A stretch of 12,374 nucleotides of DNA from a virus: the UHGV virus genome UHGV-0140723; one strand, written 5' to 3'. Within the stretch, counting starts at the first letter, position 1. Each line of letters begins with the position of its first letter. A program made the translations under genes and the position numbers. Shown here one piece after another: positions 3,142 to 11,718 of this stretch. Below the pieces are notes generated by a model. That model searched no databases. It saw only the letters and a program-made list of their open reading frames with translations, and had not been told where the DNA came from.

Positions 3142-3221
3142 TTTTGAATCTCCAATTTAGGATTTAGTGGTAAAGCTCTTTATCTGGGGCTTACTTTATC
3201 GAACTATAAGCCCCTTGTAAA
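3142..3221 (-). promoter_or_regulatory. PeSL-like cassette, family 2
   Basis: -35 TTTACA (3216-3221), 17 bp, -10 TAAAGT (3193-3198), hairpin GGGGCTTA/TAAGCCCC (3186-3214) with a 13-nt loop. The central part is identical to the copy at 5239-5267. Confidence 0.55.
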
Positions 3222-3226
3222 GTACT

Positions 3227-3499
3227 TTATGCTAAATGCAGCTTTTTGCCTTTTACTATGATGTAACTTGATGCGCTATTGCCGCATACATCTTGATAAA
3301 TTCTACGCAAACGGCCTTCGTAGTATACTTTCCAGCTAGTTGGAATCTTTTTCCCGTATCCGGTAGCAGTTTTTTGGAATCCTGCAAGTTGCCAATCCAA
3401 AATGTGCTGTTCAGCTTGTAAATCCTCGAAGTGCATTACACCGTTCACATAGTGGCGTAGGGTTACGTTTAAGGTGCGACCGTTGTTAGTAGTGTACAT
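3227..3499 (-). CDS. hypothetical protein (90 aa)
   Basis: ATG 3497-3499 behind a family-1 cassette; stop TAA 3227-3229 abuts the -35 of the next cassette. Confidence 0.65.
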   Translation of the reverse strand: MYTTNNGRTLNVTLRHYVNGVMHFEDLQAEQHILDWQLAGFQKTATGYGKKIPTSWKVYYEGRLRRIYQDVCGNSASSYIIVKGKKLHLA

Positions 3500-3593
3500 T
3501 TTTGAATCTCCTAGTTTAAGGACTTTACTTAGTGGGGAAGGTCATTCCCTCCCCGTTGATTAGTAATTTACTTGTTTTTAAAACTAAAATCAA
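3500..3593 (-). promoter_or_regulatory. PeSL-like cassette, family 1
   Basis: -35 TTGATT (3588-3593, overlapping the TGA stop of CDS 3590..3922), 17 bp, -10 TAAATT (3565-3570), hairpin GGGGAGGG/CCTTCCCC (3534-3554), RBS, ATG 3499. Confidence 0.55.
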
Positions 3594-3922: not shown

Positions 3923-4212
3923 AGTGCTTCCTCTTTACGTGACACTTTGCCATTTACAGTTATCTCATAAGAATCTAGTAAATCACTTTCAGACTTAACA
4001 GGACTTTTACAAGTATCATCATAAACATTAATTTGCAATACAGGCTTTTTATACTCCCTGCAACTATTCCATAAGCAAATCACTACACGACGGCCTTTTA
4101 TTTTGCCGTGTAACCATTCCATAACCTCATGAGTATTTCTTGAGGTCTCGATAAAATCAATTTTGTTGAGTAACTTGCTTAGATTTTCCCTAACTTTATT
4201 TGATAATTTCAT
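3916..4212 (-). CDS. hypothetical protein (98 aa)
   Basis: ATG 4210-4212 behind a family-2 variant cassette; translationally coupled to 3590..3922. Confidence 0.65.
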   Translation of the reverse strand: MKLSNKVRENLSKLLNKIDFIETSRNTHEVMEWLHGKIKGRRVVICLWNSCREYKKPVLQINVYDDTCKSPVKSESDLLDSYEITVNGKVSRKEEALC

Positions 4213-4292
4213 TTTTGAGTCTCCTAGTTTAAGGTTAGTTAATAAAGCTCTTTATCTGGGGCTATCTTATCAGCTTGATAACCCCGTGTAAA
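4213..4292 (-). promoter_or_regulatory. PeSL-like cassette, family 2 variant
   Basis: -35 CTTTACA (4287-4292), -10 TAAGAT (4264-4269), hairpin sense GGGGTTATC/GATAGCCCC (4258-4285). Inner stem base pairs differ from other family-2 copies by compensatory changes plus one G.U wobble. Confidence 0.55.
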
Positions 4293-4814: not shown

Positions 4815-4894
4815 TTTTGAATCTCCAGTTTAGGATTTAGTGGTAAAGCTCTTTATCTGGGGCTTAAGATATCAGCTTTTAAGCCCCTTGTAAA
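4815..4894 (-). promoter_or_regulatory. PeSL-like cassette, family 2
   Basis: -35 TTTACA (4889-4894), 17 bp, -10 TATCTT (4866-4871), hairpin GGGGCTTAA/TTAAGCCCC (4859-4887). Confidence 0.55.
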
Positions 4895-4902
4895 GTACTT
4901 TA

Positions 4903-5193
4903 TCAGTTAATTTTCAGCTTTGCATAACCTCTCATTGTACGAATGGGAGACGTTAAGGTTACGCGTCTGATATATGCCTTTTTAGTGTATACAGTTGTCT
5001 TCCCGATGGTGTTTACATGCGTGAAAAGGTTTATTGGTGAATTTTTTAAATTCATTTGTTTATCAGCCTTCACACCCCATCTTACAGCAGTTTGTTTTCC
5101 GTTGTCAACCACTTTTCCGCCTAACTTTTTCGCCATGATGCGAGCGTCATCACGAGTTTTTGCAGGAATTACAACGTTTTTGATAATAGCCAT
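4903..5193 (-). CDS. hypothetical basic protein (96 aa, MAIIKNVVIPAKTRDDARIMAKKLGG...)
   Basis: ATG 5191-5193 behind cassette RBS TGGAGAAC. The track ORF 4903..5208 starts at a TTG inside the RBS region and is an artefactual 5-codon extension. Confidence 0.65.
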   Translation of the reverse strand: MAIIKNVVIPAKTRDDARIMAKKLGGKVVDNGKQTAVRWGVKADKQMNLKNSPINLFTHVNTIGKTTVYTKKAYIRRVTLTSPIRTMRGYAKLKIN

Positions 5194-5274
5194 TTTTAAG
5201 TTCTCCAATTTAGGATTTAGTGGTAAAGCTCTTTATCTGGGGCTTACTTTATCGAACTATAAGCCCCTTGTAAA
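5194..5274 (-). promoter_or_regulatory. PeSL-like cassette, family 2
   Basis: -35 TTTACA (5269-5274), hairpin GGGGCTTA/TAAGCCCC (5239-5267), same loop as the 3142..3221 copy. Confidence 0.55.
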
Positions 5275-5282
5275 GTACTTTA

Positions 5283-5663
5283 TCAGTTAATTTTGAAAAT
5301 TGTCACATAGCCGTCACTGCCGATTATTTGAGACACTCCAGCTTTTTCCACTGAATAGCCCATATTTTCAAGATGATAAACAGCATCATCATAACCATAT
5401 GCGCCACCCTGATAACGTCTCTTATCGCATCTTATCAGGTTTTTACCACGTCCTGCAAGTGCATTCAGTACGGCTTTTTCACTTGATAGCGTACCATCTA
5501 ACATGGTTGCCGTGTAATGGTTGATTTTATTCCCGTTAATATCATACTTAAAATTGAATGCGTGAACAACAATCAATTTGCCGTTAAATTTTTCATCAAG
5601 TGACTTCTCCAGTGCGTTGCGGAAGTTGTCTTTGTTGATGAATTTCGGTGCACGATAAGCCAT
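5283..5663 (-). CDS. hypothetical protein (126 aa)
   Basis: ATG 5661-5663 behind a family-2 cassette. Last codons and stop (AAA ATT AAC TGA) are identical to those of CDS 4903..5193. Confidence 0.7.
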   Translation of the reverse strand: MAYRAPKFINKDNFRNALEKSLDEKFNGKLIVVHAFNFKYDINGNKINHYTATMLDGTLSSEKAVLNALAGRGKNLIRCDKRRYQGGAYGYDDAVYHLENMGYSVEKAGVSQIIGSDGYVTIFKIN

Positions 5664-5746
5664 TTTTGAATCTCCTAGTTTAAGGGTTAATTTAGTAAAG
5701 CTCTTTATCTGGGGCTTAAGATATCAGCTTTTAAGCCCCCTGTAAA
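5664..5746 (-). promoter_or_regulatory. PeSL-like cassette, family 2
   Basis: -35 TTTACA(G) (5741-5746), hairpin GGGGCTTAA/TTAAGCCCC (5711-5739), RBS AGGAGA, ATG 5663. Confidence 0.55.
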
Positions 5747-5751
5747 GTACT

Positions 5752-5958
5752 TTATTTGTCGTAGTAGTAAATCGCTGTCTGCCTTGTAAATTTCTTAGTG
5801 TTTCTTGTAAGGTAGCAATTAGAATTAATAGCCGTTTCTACATAGTTGCAATAGTCGGCTTCTGATATTCTGGACCATACGCCACAGATTTTCATGTAAA
5901 AACGTTTTACCTTTGTGTTAACGTTAGTTGTAACCATTAATTCACGATAGTAAGTCAT
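5752..5958 (-). CDS. hypothetical protein (68 aa)
   Basis: ATG 5956-5958 with RBS TGGAGAA; driven by the divergent cassette at 5959..6037. Confidence 0.6.
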   Translation of the reverse strand: MTYYRELMVTTNVNTKVKRFYMKICGVWSRISEADYCNYVETAINSNCYLTRNTKKFTRQTAIYYYDK

Positions 5959-6037
5959 TTTTGGATTCTCCAGTTTAGGAAGTGGGCTGGCTTGCCCGTC
6001 TGATGCAAATATTAAATAACCATAGTCAAAGAGTCAA
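5959..6037 (-). promoter_or_regulatory. divergent promoter + stem-loop + RBS cassette (first module of the array)
   Basis: Sense strand: -35 TTGACT (6032-6037), 17 bp, -10 TAATAT (6009-6014), short hairpin GGGC/GCCC (5984-5997), RBS TGGAGAA, ATG 5958. Same architecture as family 1, different sequence. Confidence 0.55.
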
Positions 6038-6203
6038 TAGGAATTTTAAAAATATTTTTGCAAAAAAAAAAAACTGTAATGAAACGGGTGCGCGCGATTA
6101 CCACAAAACAGAACTATAATCAAGAATTATTTTTCAATCCGCTACAAATTTTTCTGTTGACTTTTATTTTCAGATGTGGTAGCCTTGTGAGAAATGGCGA
6201 CAG

Positions 6204-6400
6204 CCCCACCTACCCCCACCTACCTGCACAATTCTAAAATGATTTTTCTTGCCCGACCTGAGCGGGGTCTGCACGTTTTGAAAATGAAAAAGCTCTTTGG
6301 AGATTACCTGCACAGTTTGAAAATGAATTTTCTCTTTGGAGTTCAAAATTTTCTCTACAGATTTCTCTACAGAACTCTACCTGCACAATTCTAAAATGAA
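6204..6400. repeat. cluster of short direct repeats in an ORF-free segment
   Basis: Four copies of CTGCAC(A/G)nTT(C/T)(T/G)AAAATGA starting at 6224, 6269, 6309 and 6382, two of them within a ~40-bp tandem unit (6268-6302 vs 6308-6342, 28/35 identical); tandem cccacctac x2 (6204-6222); tandem tttctctacag x2 (6351-6373). Confidence 0.6.
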
Positions 6401-6443
6401 AAAGCCCTCCTTACCTGAAAAATTTACCAGATAAGAAAGGCTT
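6391..6443 (-). terminator. intrinsic terminator-like long hairpin downstream of the macrodomain gene
   Basis: Sense RNA: AAGCCUUUCUUAUCUG / loop GUAAAUUUUU / CAGGUAAGGAGGGCUU gives a 16-bp stem with three G.U wobbles, followed by UUUCAUUUU. The wobbles would be C-A mismatches on the opposite strand. Confidence 0.5.
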
Positions 6444-6472
6444 AGGCTATTGTGAATATCCTACAGAGTTTC

Positions 6473-7258
6473 TTAGTTCTTTGCGTCTAAGAAGGTAACT
6501 TCTGGTGAAGAGAAGATTGCCTCGATATCCTCATCAGTTCTTGCATAGATATAAGCTTCTGCATCACTACCAAATGTTACAGCAATTCTGTGATTGCTCT
6601 TTGACAGGTGGGTAACTAGAGCGTTACTTAGAGACATCTTTTCAACCGGAGGGTTACTTTGATGTATCTTACCTTTTCTTCGTCTGAAGAGGGTAACTGC
6701 GTTATCTGTGAACACTGCTACACCTGCAAAGTATTCTGGTTCACAGTAGTTCTTCCAACCTGAGCGTAACTTGTGGTACATCTCGCCTTCATAGACATAC
6801 AGATAAACATCTACACTCTTCATCACCTGATTGATGATAACTGTGATGGCTTGAGGGTCAAGTCCACCGATACCTGCACCAATCATAGGTAAACCAACTT
6901 TCTTCAACTGATTAACTTCACAGTATCTGTTAAGCTGCTTCAAAGATGACTCTAAAGCACTGTATCGGGCATCTTTACCAGTCTTAAGCTGAGTGTAAAG
7001 GTTAGCTATACGGCCTTGTTCTAAACGTGCTACAGAGAAATTACCCAGTAAATTTTCACAGGGTTTGTGGCCTATACCACCTGCATATAGATAAACTTCT
7101 GTATCGGTCTCATATGCTTTTGGGTAAAGTTTAGAAATCTTGTCAGCGATACCTGCACCCATTAAATTCATACAGTTGCAACCGTGACCGATGATGTCAA
7201 ACTTACCTTTATCAAATGCGGCAAAGATATCACCATTGATTATTTTTACAATACCCAT
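6473..7258 (-). CDS. macrodomain protein, TARG1/OARD1/DarG-like N-terminal domain (~150 aa) plus unknown ~110-aa C-terminal domain
   Basis: 261-aa ORF; ATG 7256-7258 abuts the upstream stop (TAAATG) with RBS GGGAGAG. Motifs GDIF...GHGCNCMNLMGAGIA and LPMIGAGIGGLD match, from memory, the GDLF...HCISEDCRMGAGIA and MPRIGCGLD signature regions of human TARG1. Confidence 0.7.
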   Translation of the reverse strand: MGIVKIINGDIFAAFDKGKFDIIGHGCNCMNLMGAGIADKISKLYPKAYETDTEVYLYAGGIGHKPCENLLGNFSVARLEQGRIANLYTQLKTGKDARYSALESSLKQLNRYCEVNQLKKVGLPMIGAGIGGLDPQAITVIINQVMKSVDVYLYVYEGEMYHKLRSGWKNYCEPEYFAGVAVFTDNAVTLFRRRKGKIHQSNPPVEKMSLSNALVTHLSKSNHRIAVTFGSDAEAYIYARTDEDIEAIFSSPEVTFLDAKN

Positions 7259-7459
7259 TTAACATCTCTCCCAAGACTCTTTATCTTCTGAAGGTTTTAC
7301 ACGCTGTCCTTCGTGGTCTACCCAGATGCACCCACAACCTTCACAGATTACTGGCATTGCGTAGCCAGCTTTAAAGTCATCTTCAGTGATAAGACCTTTT
7401 AAGTCACCTGTATCACGTCCGAACATTTCGATAGAACAATCTTTACAGAAGTCAGCCAT
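7259..7459 (-). CDS. small Cys-rich protein (66 aa, CxxC...CEGCGC, zinc-ribbon-like)
   Basis: ATG 7457-7459 overlaps the TGA of the upstream gene (ATGGCTGA); RBS AAGAGG 9 nt upstream. The track ORF 7259..7537 begins at a GTG inside the upstream gene; I prefer the coupled ATG. Confidence 0.5.
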   Translation of the reverse strand: MADFCKDCSIEMFGRDTGDLKGLITEDDFKAGYAMPVICEGCGCIWVDHEGQRVKPSEDKESWERC

Positions 7460-9286: not shown

Positions 9287-9982
9287 TCAATGTTTAACTA
9301 ACATGGTTTTGATGTGTGGAAGGATTCTGCTCACCTTCTGCACATTCTTCTCTGTGTCTTCTATAAAACATACTATATTAAAGTAAGGCAGAATGCAAGA
9401 CTGAATCATCCTCACTTTCAAACTTTCTGCACTTATAGAGTTAGTTCCAAAACCACGCATAAAAAGCATGTAATCATGCTCTATGTAATGCCTTAAAAAC
9501 ATCTCAGTAGGGATTCTCTGAGATTCACCTCTAGCTGTCAAGAGTCCAATGGCAGCATGATTAGCAATTGCATCAATGATATTGAAAACATACGTCGGCT
9601 TTGCACTTACAGAGTCAAGCAAATTAGTGTACTGTGAAAATGACCCATCAATCAATTCCGTTGAGTAATCTTCGTGATTAAAATTTGTAAGAACACCATC
9701 AATGTCTGCTAAGATAAGGTTACCTTTTTCTACAAGGTCTTTATTGGCTATGACTAAGCTGTCACGCCTTACACCTATAGTTTGTCCAGTCTCTTTATCT
9801 ACAACATTCACAATTGGCTCTGATGTGTGAAACTCTTCAAGTGAACATATAACTTCTCTTGCAGTGTCTTCAAAATCCCTACACTGTTCTGGAGTCCATA
9901 CACAGGAATTAAGACCTAACTCATGAGGATGTAAGTCATAAGCATGACACAGTACTTCATCAGACTTTCTTAATTTTTTCAT
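9287..9982 (-). CDS. HAD-superfamily phosphatase-like protein (231 aa); resembles the 3'-phosphatase domain of T4 polynucleotide kinase/phosphatase but has no P-loop kinase domain
   Basis: HAD motif I LILADIDGVLT, motif II GLLTARGES and a C-terminal acidic motif FIEDTEKNVQKV parallel, from memory, the FDVDGTL, VVSGRES and AIDDRTQVV motifs of T4 Pnk. No GxxxxGK(S/T) anywhere. ATG 9980-9982 overlaps the upstream gene by 23 nt. Confidence 0.65.
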   Translation of the reverse strand: MKKLRKSDEVLCHAYDLHPHELGLNSCVWTPEQCRDFEDTAREVICSLEEFHTSEPIVNVVDKETGQTIGVRRDSLVIANKDLVEKGNLILADIDGVLTNFNHEDYSTELIDGSFSQYTNLLDSVSAKPTYVFNIIDAIANHAAIGLLTARGESQRIPTEMFLRHYIEHDYMLFMRGFGTNSISAESLKVRMIQSCILPYFNIVCFIEDTEKNVQKVSRILPHIKTMLVKH

Positions 9983-10508
9983 GATTTACCTTAGAAATGT
10001 TTGTTGCAAATTCACATTGAGCGATAACTTTCATGTTGTTATAGACATCTTGAGAATACTTCTTAGCTTTAGGGATTCTGTACGAATACCCAGCATTATA
10101 TGATGCTAAAACTTTTTGTAAAGTCTTCTTTGACTTTGGCTGACCATGTACCTTTGTCCAAAACTCAAGCTCTTTGTGCGTTTCCTTTGCAGCATAGTCA
10201 AAGTCTTTTAAGAGTTTCTTTTTAGCCACATTAGGACTAATTTTGTTACGCTTTACAACAGTCTTCAAGTGATTCTGGAAAATACCATAATCATGTGTCT
10301 TTTTATTCTCTACCTTCAGACCTAACTCTGACTCTTGTAAGGCTATAGCAGCTAGAGTGATACCCCAACCTTTGCCCATGTTATTCTCACCATACTGGTA
10401 AGCTTTTAACATGTTTACTTTTTGGCTAATTGATAGCTCTGGGCAGTCAACTGCATAAGATAAGTGTGCTGTAAACATTAAGCACAAACCTAGAATCAAT
10501 TTCTTCAT
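9960..10508 (-). CDS. exported lytic transglycosylase-like protein (SLT domain, 182 aa) with cleavable signal peptide
   Basis: N-terminus MKKLILGLCLMFTAHLSYA is a signal peptide. Family-1 lytic transglycosylase motifs ALQESELG (catalytic E-S), DYGIFQN and LASYNAGYSY. ATG 10506-10508 with RBS AGGAGAA. Confidence 0.8.
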   Translation of the reverse strand: MKKLILGLCLMFTAHLSYAVDCPELSISQKVNMLKAYQYGENNMGKGWGITLAAIALQESELGLKVENKKTHDYGIFQNHLKTVVKRNKISPNVAKKKLLKDFDYAAKETHKELEFWTKVHGQPKSKKTLQKVLASYNAGYSYRIPKAKKYSQDVYNNMKVIAQCEFATNISKVNHEKIKKV

Positions 10509-10608: not shown

Positions 10609-11718
10609 TTAGATTTCACGTTTACGTTGGGAGATAAGTTCTCCAGCAGTACCAACGATGACATGTAAAGCTTCAGTCTTGCCATCCCATGCTTTCAGCA
10701 CTTTACGTTGATTATCAACGATTGCTGCAACTTCATAACGAGACGAGCGCATCTTCATATCGTTGTAATCAGTTGGTACGGATACAACGTCTCGTGGATG
10801 GACACGAACCTTCAGAATTGTATCACCTGAGAAACAACGAACATAATCCCAAGCACCAACATGAAGACCTTGAGAGCAAGTCACGTTACGGTTATTATCA
10901 ACCATCCAACGTGGCATTTCTACAATGTTACCCAAATCATTAGGTACTCTGTAGGTGTGGGAGTCAACCAGCTTGCCTTCACGAGTAGATACTTTCTTCC
11001 AACCAATGATGTAGCCTTCTTCATCAATTTCAACATCAAGGTGAGATACGAAGCCCCAAAGTTGTTCTACGGAATCTTTAGATGGGTTTTCCATCAGTTT
11101 TTCGAAGAACATCACAAGGCGTTCGAAACCTTTATCTCCAGTCTTCATCATGTGAAGAATACGGTCAACCAGAGTAGAACGCATCTCAACAGCACCGTAG
11201 AATAGTTTGTCGCCTTTGATTGTGATAGCACCCTGAGTGAAGTTTTCGATAGACTTACGAATGTTCATCAGTTCAAAGGCTTTCTTAAACTCACCTTTCA
11301 CAACATGAACTACAATCTCTTGATAGTTCGGATGAGTAGATTCAACAATTTCAGACTCTGAACCATAAGTCATAATTACAGAGTCACCAGTAATCATGTA
11401 CTCAATCTTGTCATCTTTCTGCATAGCTTCATGCAGTTTATTTACTGGAGCTTTCTGTACAGCATCTTTAACAACCTTTTCAACTGGTTTGCCAGCTTTC
11501 TTTTTAAAAGTCTTAGCAACTTGTTTCAAAGTCTTCGTAGCTGGTGTAGAAGTTGCCTTCTTATTCCCTTTTAAGGTTGCTTCATGACGCTCTACAGCAC
11601 GACCGACTGAACGGGTTGAAGTATTAAATTTCTGTGCAATAGCTGTTTTAGTCAACTTACCTTCTTTAACCAGTTTGTAAATTTCTGCGTCAATCTGTGC
11701 TTTAGTTTTAGTAGTCAT
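10609..11718 (-). CDS. rIIB: rIIB protein (369 aa)
   Basis: Strong similarity by recollection to T4 rIIB across the C-terminal two thirds (LVDRIL, ENPS, EMPRWMVDNNRNVTCSQGLHV vs T4 KMPRTRVNDDDTQTCSRGLHV, VRVHPRDVVSVPTDYNDMKMR vs T4 VKVHPRDVVSIPIDYNDAKMR). N-terminal helix-turn-helix-like segment. ATG 11716-11718 with RBS GAGAGAG. Confidence 0.9.
   Translation of the reverse strand: MTTKTKAQIDAEIYKLVKEGKLTKTAIAQKFNTSTRSVGRAVERHEATLKGNKKATSTPATKTLKQVAKTFKKKAGKPVEKVVKDAVQKAPVNKLHEAMQKDDKIEYMITGDSVIMTYGSESEIVESTHPNYQEIVVHVVKGEFKKAFELMNIRKSIENFTQGAITIKGDKLFYGAVEMRSTLVDRILHMMKTGDKGFERLVMFFEKLMENPSKDSVEQLWGFVSHLDVEIDEEGYIIGWKKVSTREGKLVDSHTYRVPNDLGNIVEMPRWMVDNNRNVTCSQGLHVGAWDYVRCFSGDTILKVRVHPRDVVSVPTDYNDMKMRSSRYEVAAIVDNQRKVLKAWDGKTEALHVIVGTAGELISQRKREI

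Follow-up and report, generated by a model that had tools for sequence, protein, structure and literature searches.

A gene for a two-domain macro protein in a stretch of phage DNA raises the question of which ADP-ribosylated substrate the enzyme would act on, and what its second domain adds. The stretch analysed here (the window) comprises 12,374 nucleotides of UHGV virus genome UHGV-0140723. DarTG is a widespread DNA-ADP-ribosylating defence, and phage AdfM macrodomains have been recognised only in 2025-2026. An earlier reading of this DNA, made from the letters alone (the sequence-only reading), had suggested that the protein could reverse host ADP-ribosylation of phage DNA or proteins, for example that set by DarT-type systems, or could regulate a phage-encoded ADP-ribosyltransferase (ART). 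Our analysis favours, with a probability of roughly 0.6, an AdfM-type counter-defence enzyme that would erase DarT2-type thymidine ADP-ribosylation from phage DNA via a Gln/Asn active site and that carries a lineage-specific accessory domain.

The locus and its genomic setting

The window has about 94% nucleotide identity to Felixounavirus genomes, for example Escherichia phage LinBro and Bas63 (JohannRWettstein), which confirms that the gene is phage-encoded; the window is the early-gene region of a Felix O1-type phage. All genes lie on one strand, in the order rIIA, rIIB, an SLT-like protein, a HAD-type polynucleotide kinase, spanins, small unknown genes, the macro gene and further small unknown genes. 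The macro gene is part of the early-type block that begins with rIIA/rIIB, its neighbours are phage genes of unknown function, and the polynucleotide kinase gene lies 2 kb upstream of it.

The open reading frame proposed by the sequence-only reading is real (Table 1). It was proposed with no strand given; the frame is on the minus strand, where 261 codons are followed by a TAA stop, and the plus-strand translation of the same interval contains stops throughout. The orthologues bas63_0095 of Bas63 and CDS0098 of LinBro are annotated as 'putative phosphatase', and PHROG phrog_335 matches residues 1-260 of the window protein with E = 6e-113.

Reading the sequence directly, we found that the TAA (7259-7261) of an upstream gene for a 66-residue Cys-rich protein abuts the ATG of the macro gene, which suggests that the two are translationally coupled. 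At the other end, a hairpin and T-run about 30 nt past the stop indicate that the macro gene is the last of its transcription unit. The Cys-rich protein (7259-7459, minus strand; phrog_2210) is zinc-ribbon-like, with the pattern CxxC...CxxCxC. In one distant relative (L005) this upstream slot holds a different 63-residue CxxC...CxxC protein and in another (L006) an unrelated 103-residue protein, so that the coupled gene is not supported as a conserved functional partner. The same two distant loci also encode, shortly before the macro gene, a conserved protein of some 100-118 residues starting MN..Q.L.LKL.EE..E (L005:7467-7823, L006:7379-7687), which is absent from the window and whose start resembles, by eye only, small MazG-type pyrophosphohydrolases. 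In three Moogle-like contigs (L030, L032 and L034) the frame stays open for 19 codons ahead of the conserved MGIVK start (MKVTELNHLK...), probably without coding for a longer protein, although gene callers could be misled.

Full-length copies of the protein occur in 258 phage records, equal to the count of records matching the surrounding 4 kb, and the gene is hence effectively core to Felixounavirus and its sister genera (Moogle-like and SUSP2-like phages). Distant two-domain homologues with 33-35% identity lie in the same gene order (rIIA-rIIB...PNK...macro) on metagenome contigs that are phage-like and have the same rIIA/rIIB block; the macro-plus-tail architecture is hence old in this lineage. 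The Bas63 orthologue, at 63,278-64,063, falls within the segment of about 46-66 kb that PhageMaP found to be uniformly non-essential on laboratory hosts, as expected of a conditional counter-defence gene. The Bas63 genome also encodes NadV and PRPP synthetase; its annotation lists no KptA/Tpt1, 2H or RNA ligase gene, and a NADAR (AdfN-type) protein is not reported for Bas63 in the BASEL survey. Our literature search found nothing linking Felixounaviruses to DarTG, nor any description of the window protein.

Several other features of the region were noted. The SLT-like protein upstream of the macro gene (9960-10508, minus strand; also L002:616-1161) has a signal-peptide-like N-terminus and a Pfam SLT match below the cut-off (E = 9e-4). 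T4 has an SLT-domain protein two genes upstream of its macro gene tk.4, and the presence of such a protein near both genes is probably coincidence. The rIIB homologue (10609-11718, minus strand, 369 residues) shows a weak N-terminal HTH-like match (HTH_Tnp_ISL3, E = 1.3e-3, below the cut-off). Between the small early genes lie repeated intergenic cassettes of about 85-93 nt belonging to two families, and these recur in related phages. On the minus (gene) strand each has a terminator-like G+C hairpin with a T-run, followed by AAACTAGGAGA...ATG, that is, a Shine-Dalgarno sequence and the next start codon. Just downstream of the macro gene, at 6221-6414 of the intergenic region 5960-6470, there are three to four copies of a direct repeat of 29-34 nt (gene strand ...TTTTCATTTTAGAATTGTGCAGGTA); one of these copies and the terminator-like hairpin overlap, and tiny ORFs are annotated here in some relatives.

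Table 1. Positions of features in the window, with the evidence or detail for each
Feature	Position	Strand	Evidence or detail
Complete ORF, 261 aa + TAA	6473..7258	-	Translation; phrog_335 match
Macro domain, residues 1-156, ALC1-like (TARG1/DarG/SCO6735) class, Tk.4/AdfM-type	6791..7258	-	Pfam, PDB profile matches, Foldseek, Tk.4 identity
Motif GHGCNCMNLMGAGIA, aa 24-38: invariant Asn28 and GxG phosphate-binding loop	7145..7189	-	Invariant alignment columns
Invariant NLYTQ, aa 86-90	6989..7003	-	HMMER and MAFFT alignments; SCO6735 equivalence from PMC9411070
PMIGAGIGGLD, aa 124-134, second diphosphate-binding loop	6857..6889	-	Alignments
Orphan C-terminal domain, residues 157-261	6476..6790	-	Linker helix, six beta-strands, terminal helix
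Segment replaced as cassette in finno and BPS17L1	6421..7115	-	aa ~48-261 and 3' UTR; flanks 95% and 90% nt-identical
Shine-Dalgarno-like GGGAGAG, 7 nt upstream of macro-gene ATG	7266..7272	-	Sequence read directly
Terminator-like hairpin, 17 pairs, then T-run, ~30 nt downstream of macro-gene stop	6402..6443	-	
Repeat family 1	2355-2447, 3149-3241, 4822-4914, 5202-5294, 5674-5766		
Repeat family 2	827-910, 1391-1474, 2634-2717, 3497-3580		
Further repeated-cassette element	4210-4268		

The macro domain and its active site

The sequence-only reading had placed residues 1-150 in the TARG1/DarG macrodomain subfamily and had proposed a Pfam macro-profile search. In that search Macro (PF01661) matched residues 25-138 with 30.3 bits (E = 4.5e-7), above the gathering cut-off of 22. 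An AF2 model of the full-length protein (pLDDT 84.4, pTM 0.84) has the three-layer alpha/beta macro fold. Foldseek of this model against the PDB gave 235 matches at E ≤ 0.001, of which the best 50 of 235 were all macro-domain structures or designs built on one. The TM scores among the PDB matches were 0.7-0.83, and 0.77-0.83 for TARG1 and DarG, all normalised to the target; the match to TARG1 (4j5r) had E = 5.6e-10 and TM 0.82 on the same normalisation.

A profile of 19 full-length homologues gave the same ranking against the PDB, with TARG1 first (E = 3.9e-11) and then DarG of M. tuberculosis (3.7e-9) and T. aquaticus (1.6e-7); MacroD/nsp3-type macro domains came behind these, at E of at least 0.014. 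The sole PADLOC match was the DarG model (E = 1.1e-12), and the top NCBIfam match was the DarG model NF048014, which aligned with the macro part only and scored 46.7 bits against an equivalog cut-off of 250. These DarG models were the only defence or antitoxin matches of the window protein. Given that TARG1 and DarG come first by both profile and predicted fold, and that DarG models are the PADLOC and NCBIfam matches, the assignment to the ALC1-like class (TARG1, DarG, SCO6735) is sound and the earlier subfamily placement holds, TARG1 being the nearest solved relative and DarG the next. The domain is under strong purifying selection (dN/dS about 0.07). The window protein is not a DarG orthologue: DarG's C-terminal DarT-binding domain is not recognisable in it, and the gene has phage genes as neighbours and not an adjacent darT, with no ART detected in the window.

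All three motifs quoted in the sequence-only reading are present, as G9-D10-I11-F12, G24-HGCNCMNLMGAGIA-38 and P124-MIGAGIGGLD-134. They had been taken as the catalytic signature regions of TARG1/OARD1 and DarG. The regions are indeed there, but the catalytic residues are not conserved, the TARG1 dyad K84/D125 being replaced by Q90 and G131 and DarG K80 by Q90. Gln90 lies in the column of TARG1 K84, DarG K80 and SCO6735 Gln85, within an NLYTQ motif that takes the place of the DarG FPTK motif with its catalytic Lys80, and G131 occupies the TARG1 D125 column in the alignments. N28 aligns with N23 of PhiKZ gp104 and with the DarG Asn. Both N28 and Q90 are invariant in the 19 homologues, even in those only about 33% identical to the window protein, as are the ADP-ribose-binding loop residues G34, G36, G127, G129 and G132. 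The PMIGAGIGGLD loop resembles DarG G[AV]GNGGL[DP], and the low pLDDT of residues 31-34 is consistent with a flexible loop.

A Gln at the catalytic-Lys column together with a positioning Asn is the arrangement of SCO6735. This enzyme removes ADP-ribose linked to thymidine in DNA and gives protection from DarT; its Gln85 is held by Asn27, the Q85A mutant is inactive, N27S is almost inactive, and a water-mediated mechanism has been proposed (PMC9411070). The Q90 and N28 columns were set by alignment to TARG1/DarG and by the structure-based equivalence of PMC9411070; the direct alignment to SCO6735 is weak. For T4 Tk.4 the nearest solved structure is BT1257 (E = 1.3e-9), which PMC9411070 groups with SCO6735. 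A MAFFT alignment of BT1257 NMIGQ to NLYTQ was ambiguous in its placement and is not relied upon. As neither K84/D125 nor K80 is conserved, SCO6735-like Gln-type chemistry is the more likely, and from the alignments we infer a macro domain capable of catalysis, with a mechanism closer to that of SCO6735 than to that of DarG.

The C-terminal domain and the exchange of alleles

Behind the macro domain the sequence-only reading had seen a C-terminal domain of about 110 residues with no recognisable features. It is a separate and confidently modelled domain (pLDDT about 80-89 within the whole-protein model, 77 in a model of the domain by itself), with a length of 105 residues (157-261), and it always occurs fused to its macro domain. 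Its lack of recognisable features extended to every search: no relative was detectable in Pfam, PDB, NCBIfam, BFVD or 1.84 billion representative proteins. Pfam searches with the domain from 15 family members gave only scattered matches (best E = 0.025; a PH-domain match at E = 0.19), PDB sequences and NCBIfam gave nothing, and the domain profile recovered only its own family from the 1.84 billion representatives. Profile matches in two large proteins (P0033 and P0034) were multi-copy repeat artefacts. There was no support for homology between the tail and the C-terminal domain of DarG, and neither a consistently basic (DNA-binding) nor a consistently acidic (DNA-mimic) tail fits a net charge that varies from -5 to +4.

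Among 210 Felixounavirus pairs, dN/dS (Nei-Gojobori) was 0.18 for the tail vs 0.066 for the macro domain, and in the Moogle-like group the corresponding values were 0.27 and 0.10. The tail evolves about 2.7 times as fast as the macro domain, and identities to the window sequence for macro domain and tail were 80%/55%, 53%/19% and 42%/17%. The tail values of 0.18-0.27 speak against domain-wide positive selection, and with a tail dN/dS of 0.18 residues 157-261 are a real, constrained protein domain, albeit a faster-evolving one. The role of the tail is most plausibly partner or substrate recognition.

At the same position the phages finno and BPS17L1 carry an allele of 259 residues with 42% identity (L003:2485-3264 and L004:2485-3264). 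The nucleotide identity between finno and the window is 95% down to position 7116 (codon 48), undetectable from 7115 to 6421 and about 90% thereafter. The finno-type allele is therefore a sharply bounded cassette exchange that took most of the macro domain together with the tail. A weak tblastn match that had suggested a stand-alone tail paralogue in these two phages turned out to be this divergent version of the gene itself, in its usual place.

Genomes comparable in size, from Erwinia-phage-like relatives (IMG/VR contigs of about 84.5 kb), encode a 260-residue protein whose macro domain is 44% identical (L038:1498-2280, L039:1498-2280). Its tail of about 105 residues has no Pfam match, and a shared origin with the window tail was rejected, both hmmsearch and hhalign being negative. 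Other Tk.4-type proteins carry different short tails or a cREC domain. One of these, a metagenomic protein of 339 residues (P0026), has a Tk.4-type macro domain fused at its C-terminus to cREC_REC, a cyclic-phosphate-processing receiver, a hint that small ADP-ribose derivatives are handled by part of the subfamily. We interpret a conserved enzymatic head with exchangeable, fast-evolving tails as fitting a gene engaged with variable host factors; likewise, the bounded cassette replacement in genomes of 90-95% identity and the fast-evolving tail fit an arms-race gene.

Proposed function, alternatives and comparison with known systems

We propose a model where a DarT2-type toxin of the host ADP-ribosylates thymidine in single-stranded phage DNA; the macro domain would bind this ADP-ribose and hydrolyse the ribose-base bond so that replication of the phage genome proceeds. 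Gln-type catalysis as in SCO6735 is the most likely chemistry: Gln90, held by Asn28, would position the distal ribose while a bound water does the chemistry, a mechanism that differs from the lysine mechanism of TARG1/DarG. The C-terminal domain would be an accessory module specific to the lineage and evolving together with the macro domain to which it is attached; most likely it binds a partner, either DarT itself or some other factor of the host, or enlarges the surface for substrate binding. Such a tail would parallel the DarG architecture of a macro domain plus a toxin-binding domain.

The counter-DarT idea draws its experimental support, by analogy, from the homologue T4 Tk.4. For the window protein the data establish the fold and class, the homology to Tk.4, the active-site residues and a real C-terminal domain under constraint, whereas we infer the substrate (thymidine-linked ADP-ribose on DNA), protection against DarTG2 and whatever the tail contributes. 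E. coli is described as carrying DarTG systems (EPEC DarTG). A bolder version, which we regard as speculative and rather unlikely, makes the orphan tail a toxin-binding or toxin-inhibiting module. The protein would then be a phage analogue of the two-mode DarG built from unrelated parts, combining erasure of DNA ADP-ribosylation with direct neutralisation of DarT or another host ADP-ribosyltransferase, and the allele cassettes (the 42% identical allele and the different Erwinia-type tail) would be specificity variants for different host toxins.

The alternative that survives best, which we consider unlikely, is that the enzyme acts on small ADP-ribose derivatives and not on DNA. Its substrate could be ADP-ribose-1''-phosphate, an RNA-repair by-product (a Poa1p-like 'phosphatase' activity), O-acetyl-ADP-ribose, or ADP-ribose-based immune signals or toxins, and the enzyme would clean up metabolites or weaken the NAD-based immunity of the host. 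According to Iyer et al., the main targets of phage macro domains are ADP-ribose derivatives of low molecular weight, and this family is widely annotated 'phosphatase' or 'Poa1p-like', although the 'phosphatase' annotation is inherited by name. Poa1p is a significant neighbour of the window protein by sequence (6lfu, E = 6e-5) and by fold (6lfq, E = 1e-7), as it is of Tk.4 (E = 2.8e-6), but the sequence match covers the N-terminal 60 residues only. The nearby polynucleotide kinase gene, NadV and PRPP synthetase in the same genome and the cREC fusion in P0026 would all suit such a role, whereas the RNA-repair genes KptA/Tpt1, 2H and RNA ligase are not annotated in Bas63, and the sole direct phenotype of the subfamily is anti-DarTG2.

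Less probable again is reversal of protein or RNA ADP-ribosylation, set either by other host defence ADP-ribosyltransferases or by a phage ART in need of an eraser. TARG1 and SCO6735 also hydrolyse protein-linked ADP-ribose (PMC9411070), and the macro superfamily spans protein and nucleic-acid substrates. Against this, no phenotype ties the subfamily to protein or RNA targets, and no ART domain was detected in any window ORF or is annotated in the complete Bas63 genome, which also leaves the earlier suggestion that the protein regulates a phage-encoded ART with no support. Finally, a mainly non-catalytic binder that sequesters DarT or another ADP-ribose-handling host protein via the macro cleft and/or the C-terminal domain would have parallels in catalytically dead SCO6735, DarG and TARG1, which still inhibit DarT by interaction (PMC9411070), and in the phage factors AdfA and AdfB, which neutralise DarT by binding, and would suit the absence of the canonical catalytic Lys, but is highly improbable given the ADP-ribose-binding and Gln-type catalytic residues (N28, G34, G36, Q90, G127, G129) invariant across 19 members, to about 33% identity, and a macro-domain dN/dS of 0.07.

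What is new at the locus is the orphan C-terminal domain with its cassette-like variation, the key functional idea having already been published for the T4 homologue. If the proposed DNA-directed function is true, it would extend AdfM-type counter-defence to the Felixounaviruses, a genus much used in Salmonella and E. coli biocontrol and therapy, and would add a natural phage example of a Gln-type active site. Bas63 can be engineered and would be a tractable system for asking what a fast-evolving second domain adds to a macrodomain eraser. Should the tail set the toxin or substrate that is countered, allele typing at the locus could help to predict host range on DarTG-carrying strains; should it be only structural, the protein would be an ordinary family member with a lineage-specific extension.

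Among known systems, yeast Poa1p is the source of the 'phosphatase' annotation. Its N-terminal HSCNC..WGGGIA compares with GHGCNC..MGAGIA in the window protein, but the sequence match is limited to approximately the first 60 residues, and by fold it ranks below TARG1/DarG. Human TARG1/OARD1 is the best solved match in both sequence and fold (E = 3.9e-11; TM 0.82), but differs from the window protein at both dyad positions and has Ser at the N28 column. DarG (M. tuberculosis, T. aquaticus) likewise starts with a macro domain of the ALC1-like class, which has a similar G[AV]G.GGL[DP] loop, and continues with a second domain; here K80 is Q90 in the window protein, and the C-terminal domains are not detectably related. 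SCO6735 is an ALC1-like macro domain with the same Gln at the catalytic-Lys position and the same positioning Asn. It is bacterial and single-domain, its similarity to the window protein is weak (E = 0.16-0.46), and the longer 'mobile loop' of the SCO6735/BT1257 group is absent from the window protein (a 6-residue gap).

PhiKZ gp104 (AdfM) removes DarT2-installed ADP-ribose from a DNA oligonucleotide in vitro and rescues DarT2 toxicity, and mutation of its N23 reduces activity (PMC13309987). It too is an ALC1-like phage macro domain, in which N23 is the equivalent of N28, but it is only 23% identical to the window protein, keeps the FPTK lysine motif and is a single domain that is imported into the phage nucleus. 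By sequence it is a close DarG homologue (E = 9e-25 to M. tuberculosis DarG; 133 bits to the PADLOC DarG model). The two proteins named AdfM, T4 Tk.4 and PhiKZ gp104, belong to different subfamilies.

The window protein sides with T4 Tk.4. In a transposon library grown on a DarTG2 host tk.4 was the single significant hit, its clean knockout was DarTG2-sensitive, and the gene was renamed adfM (10.1101/2025.11.20.689424, a 2025 preprint); anti-DarTG2 activity is shown for T4 Tk.4 only. Tk.4 is a single domain of 155 residues and is without the 105-residue C-terminal domain of the window protein. Residues 3-157 of the window protein are 35% identical to it (E = 2e-24), and both fall in PHROG phrog_335. 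The two share the motifs AHGCNC..MG.G.A, NLYTQ (with Gln at the catalytic-Lys column) and P.IGAGIG, and both genes are non-essential and lie in an early-type region of a virulent myovirus.
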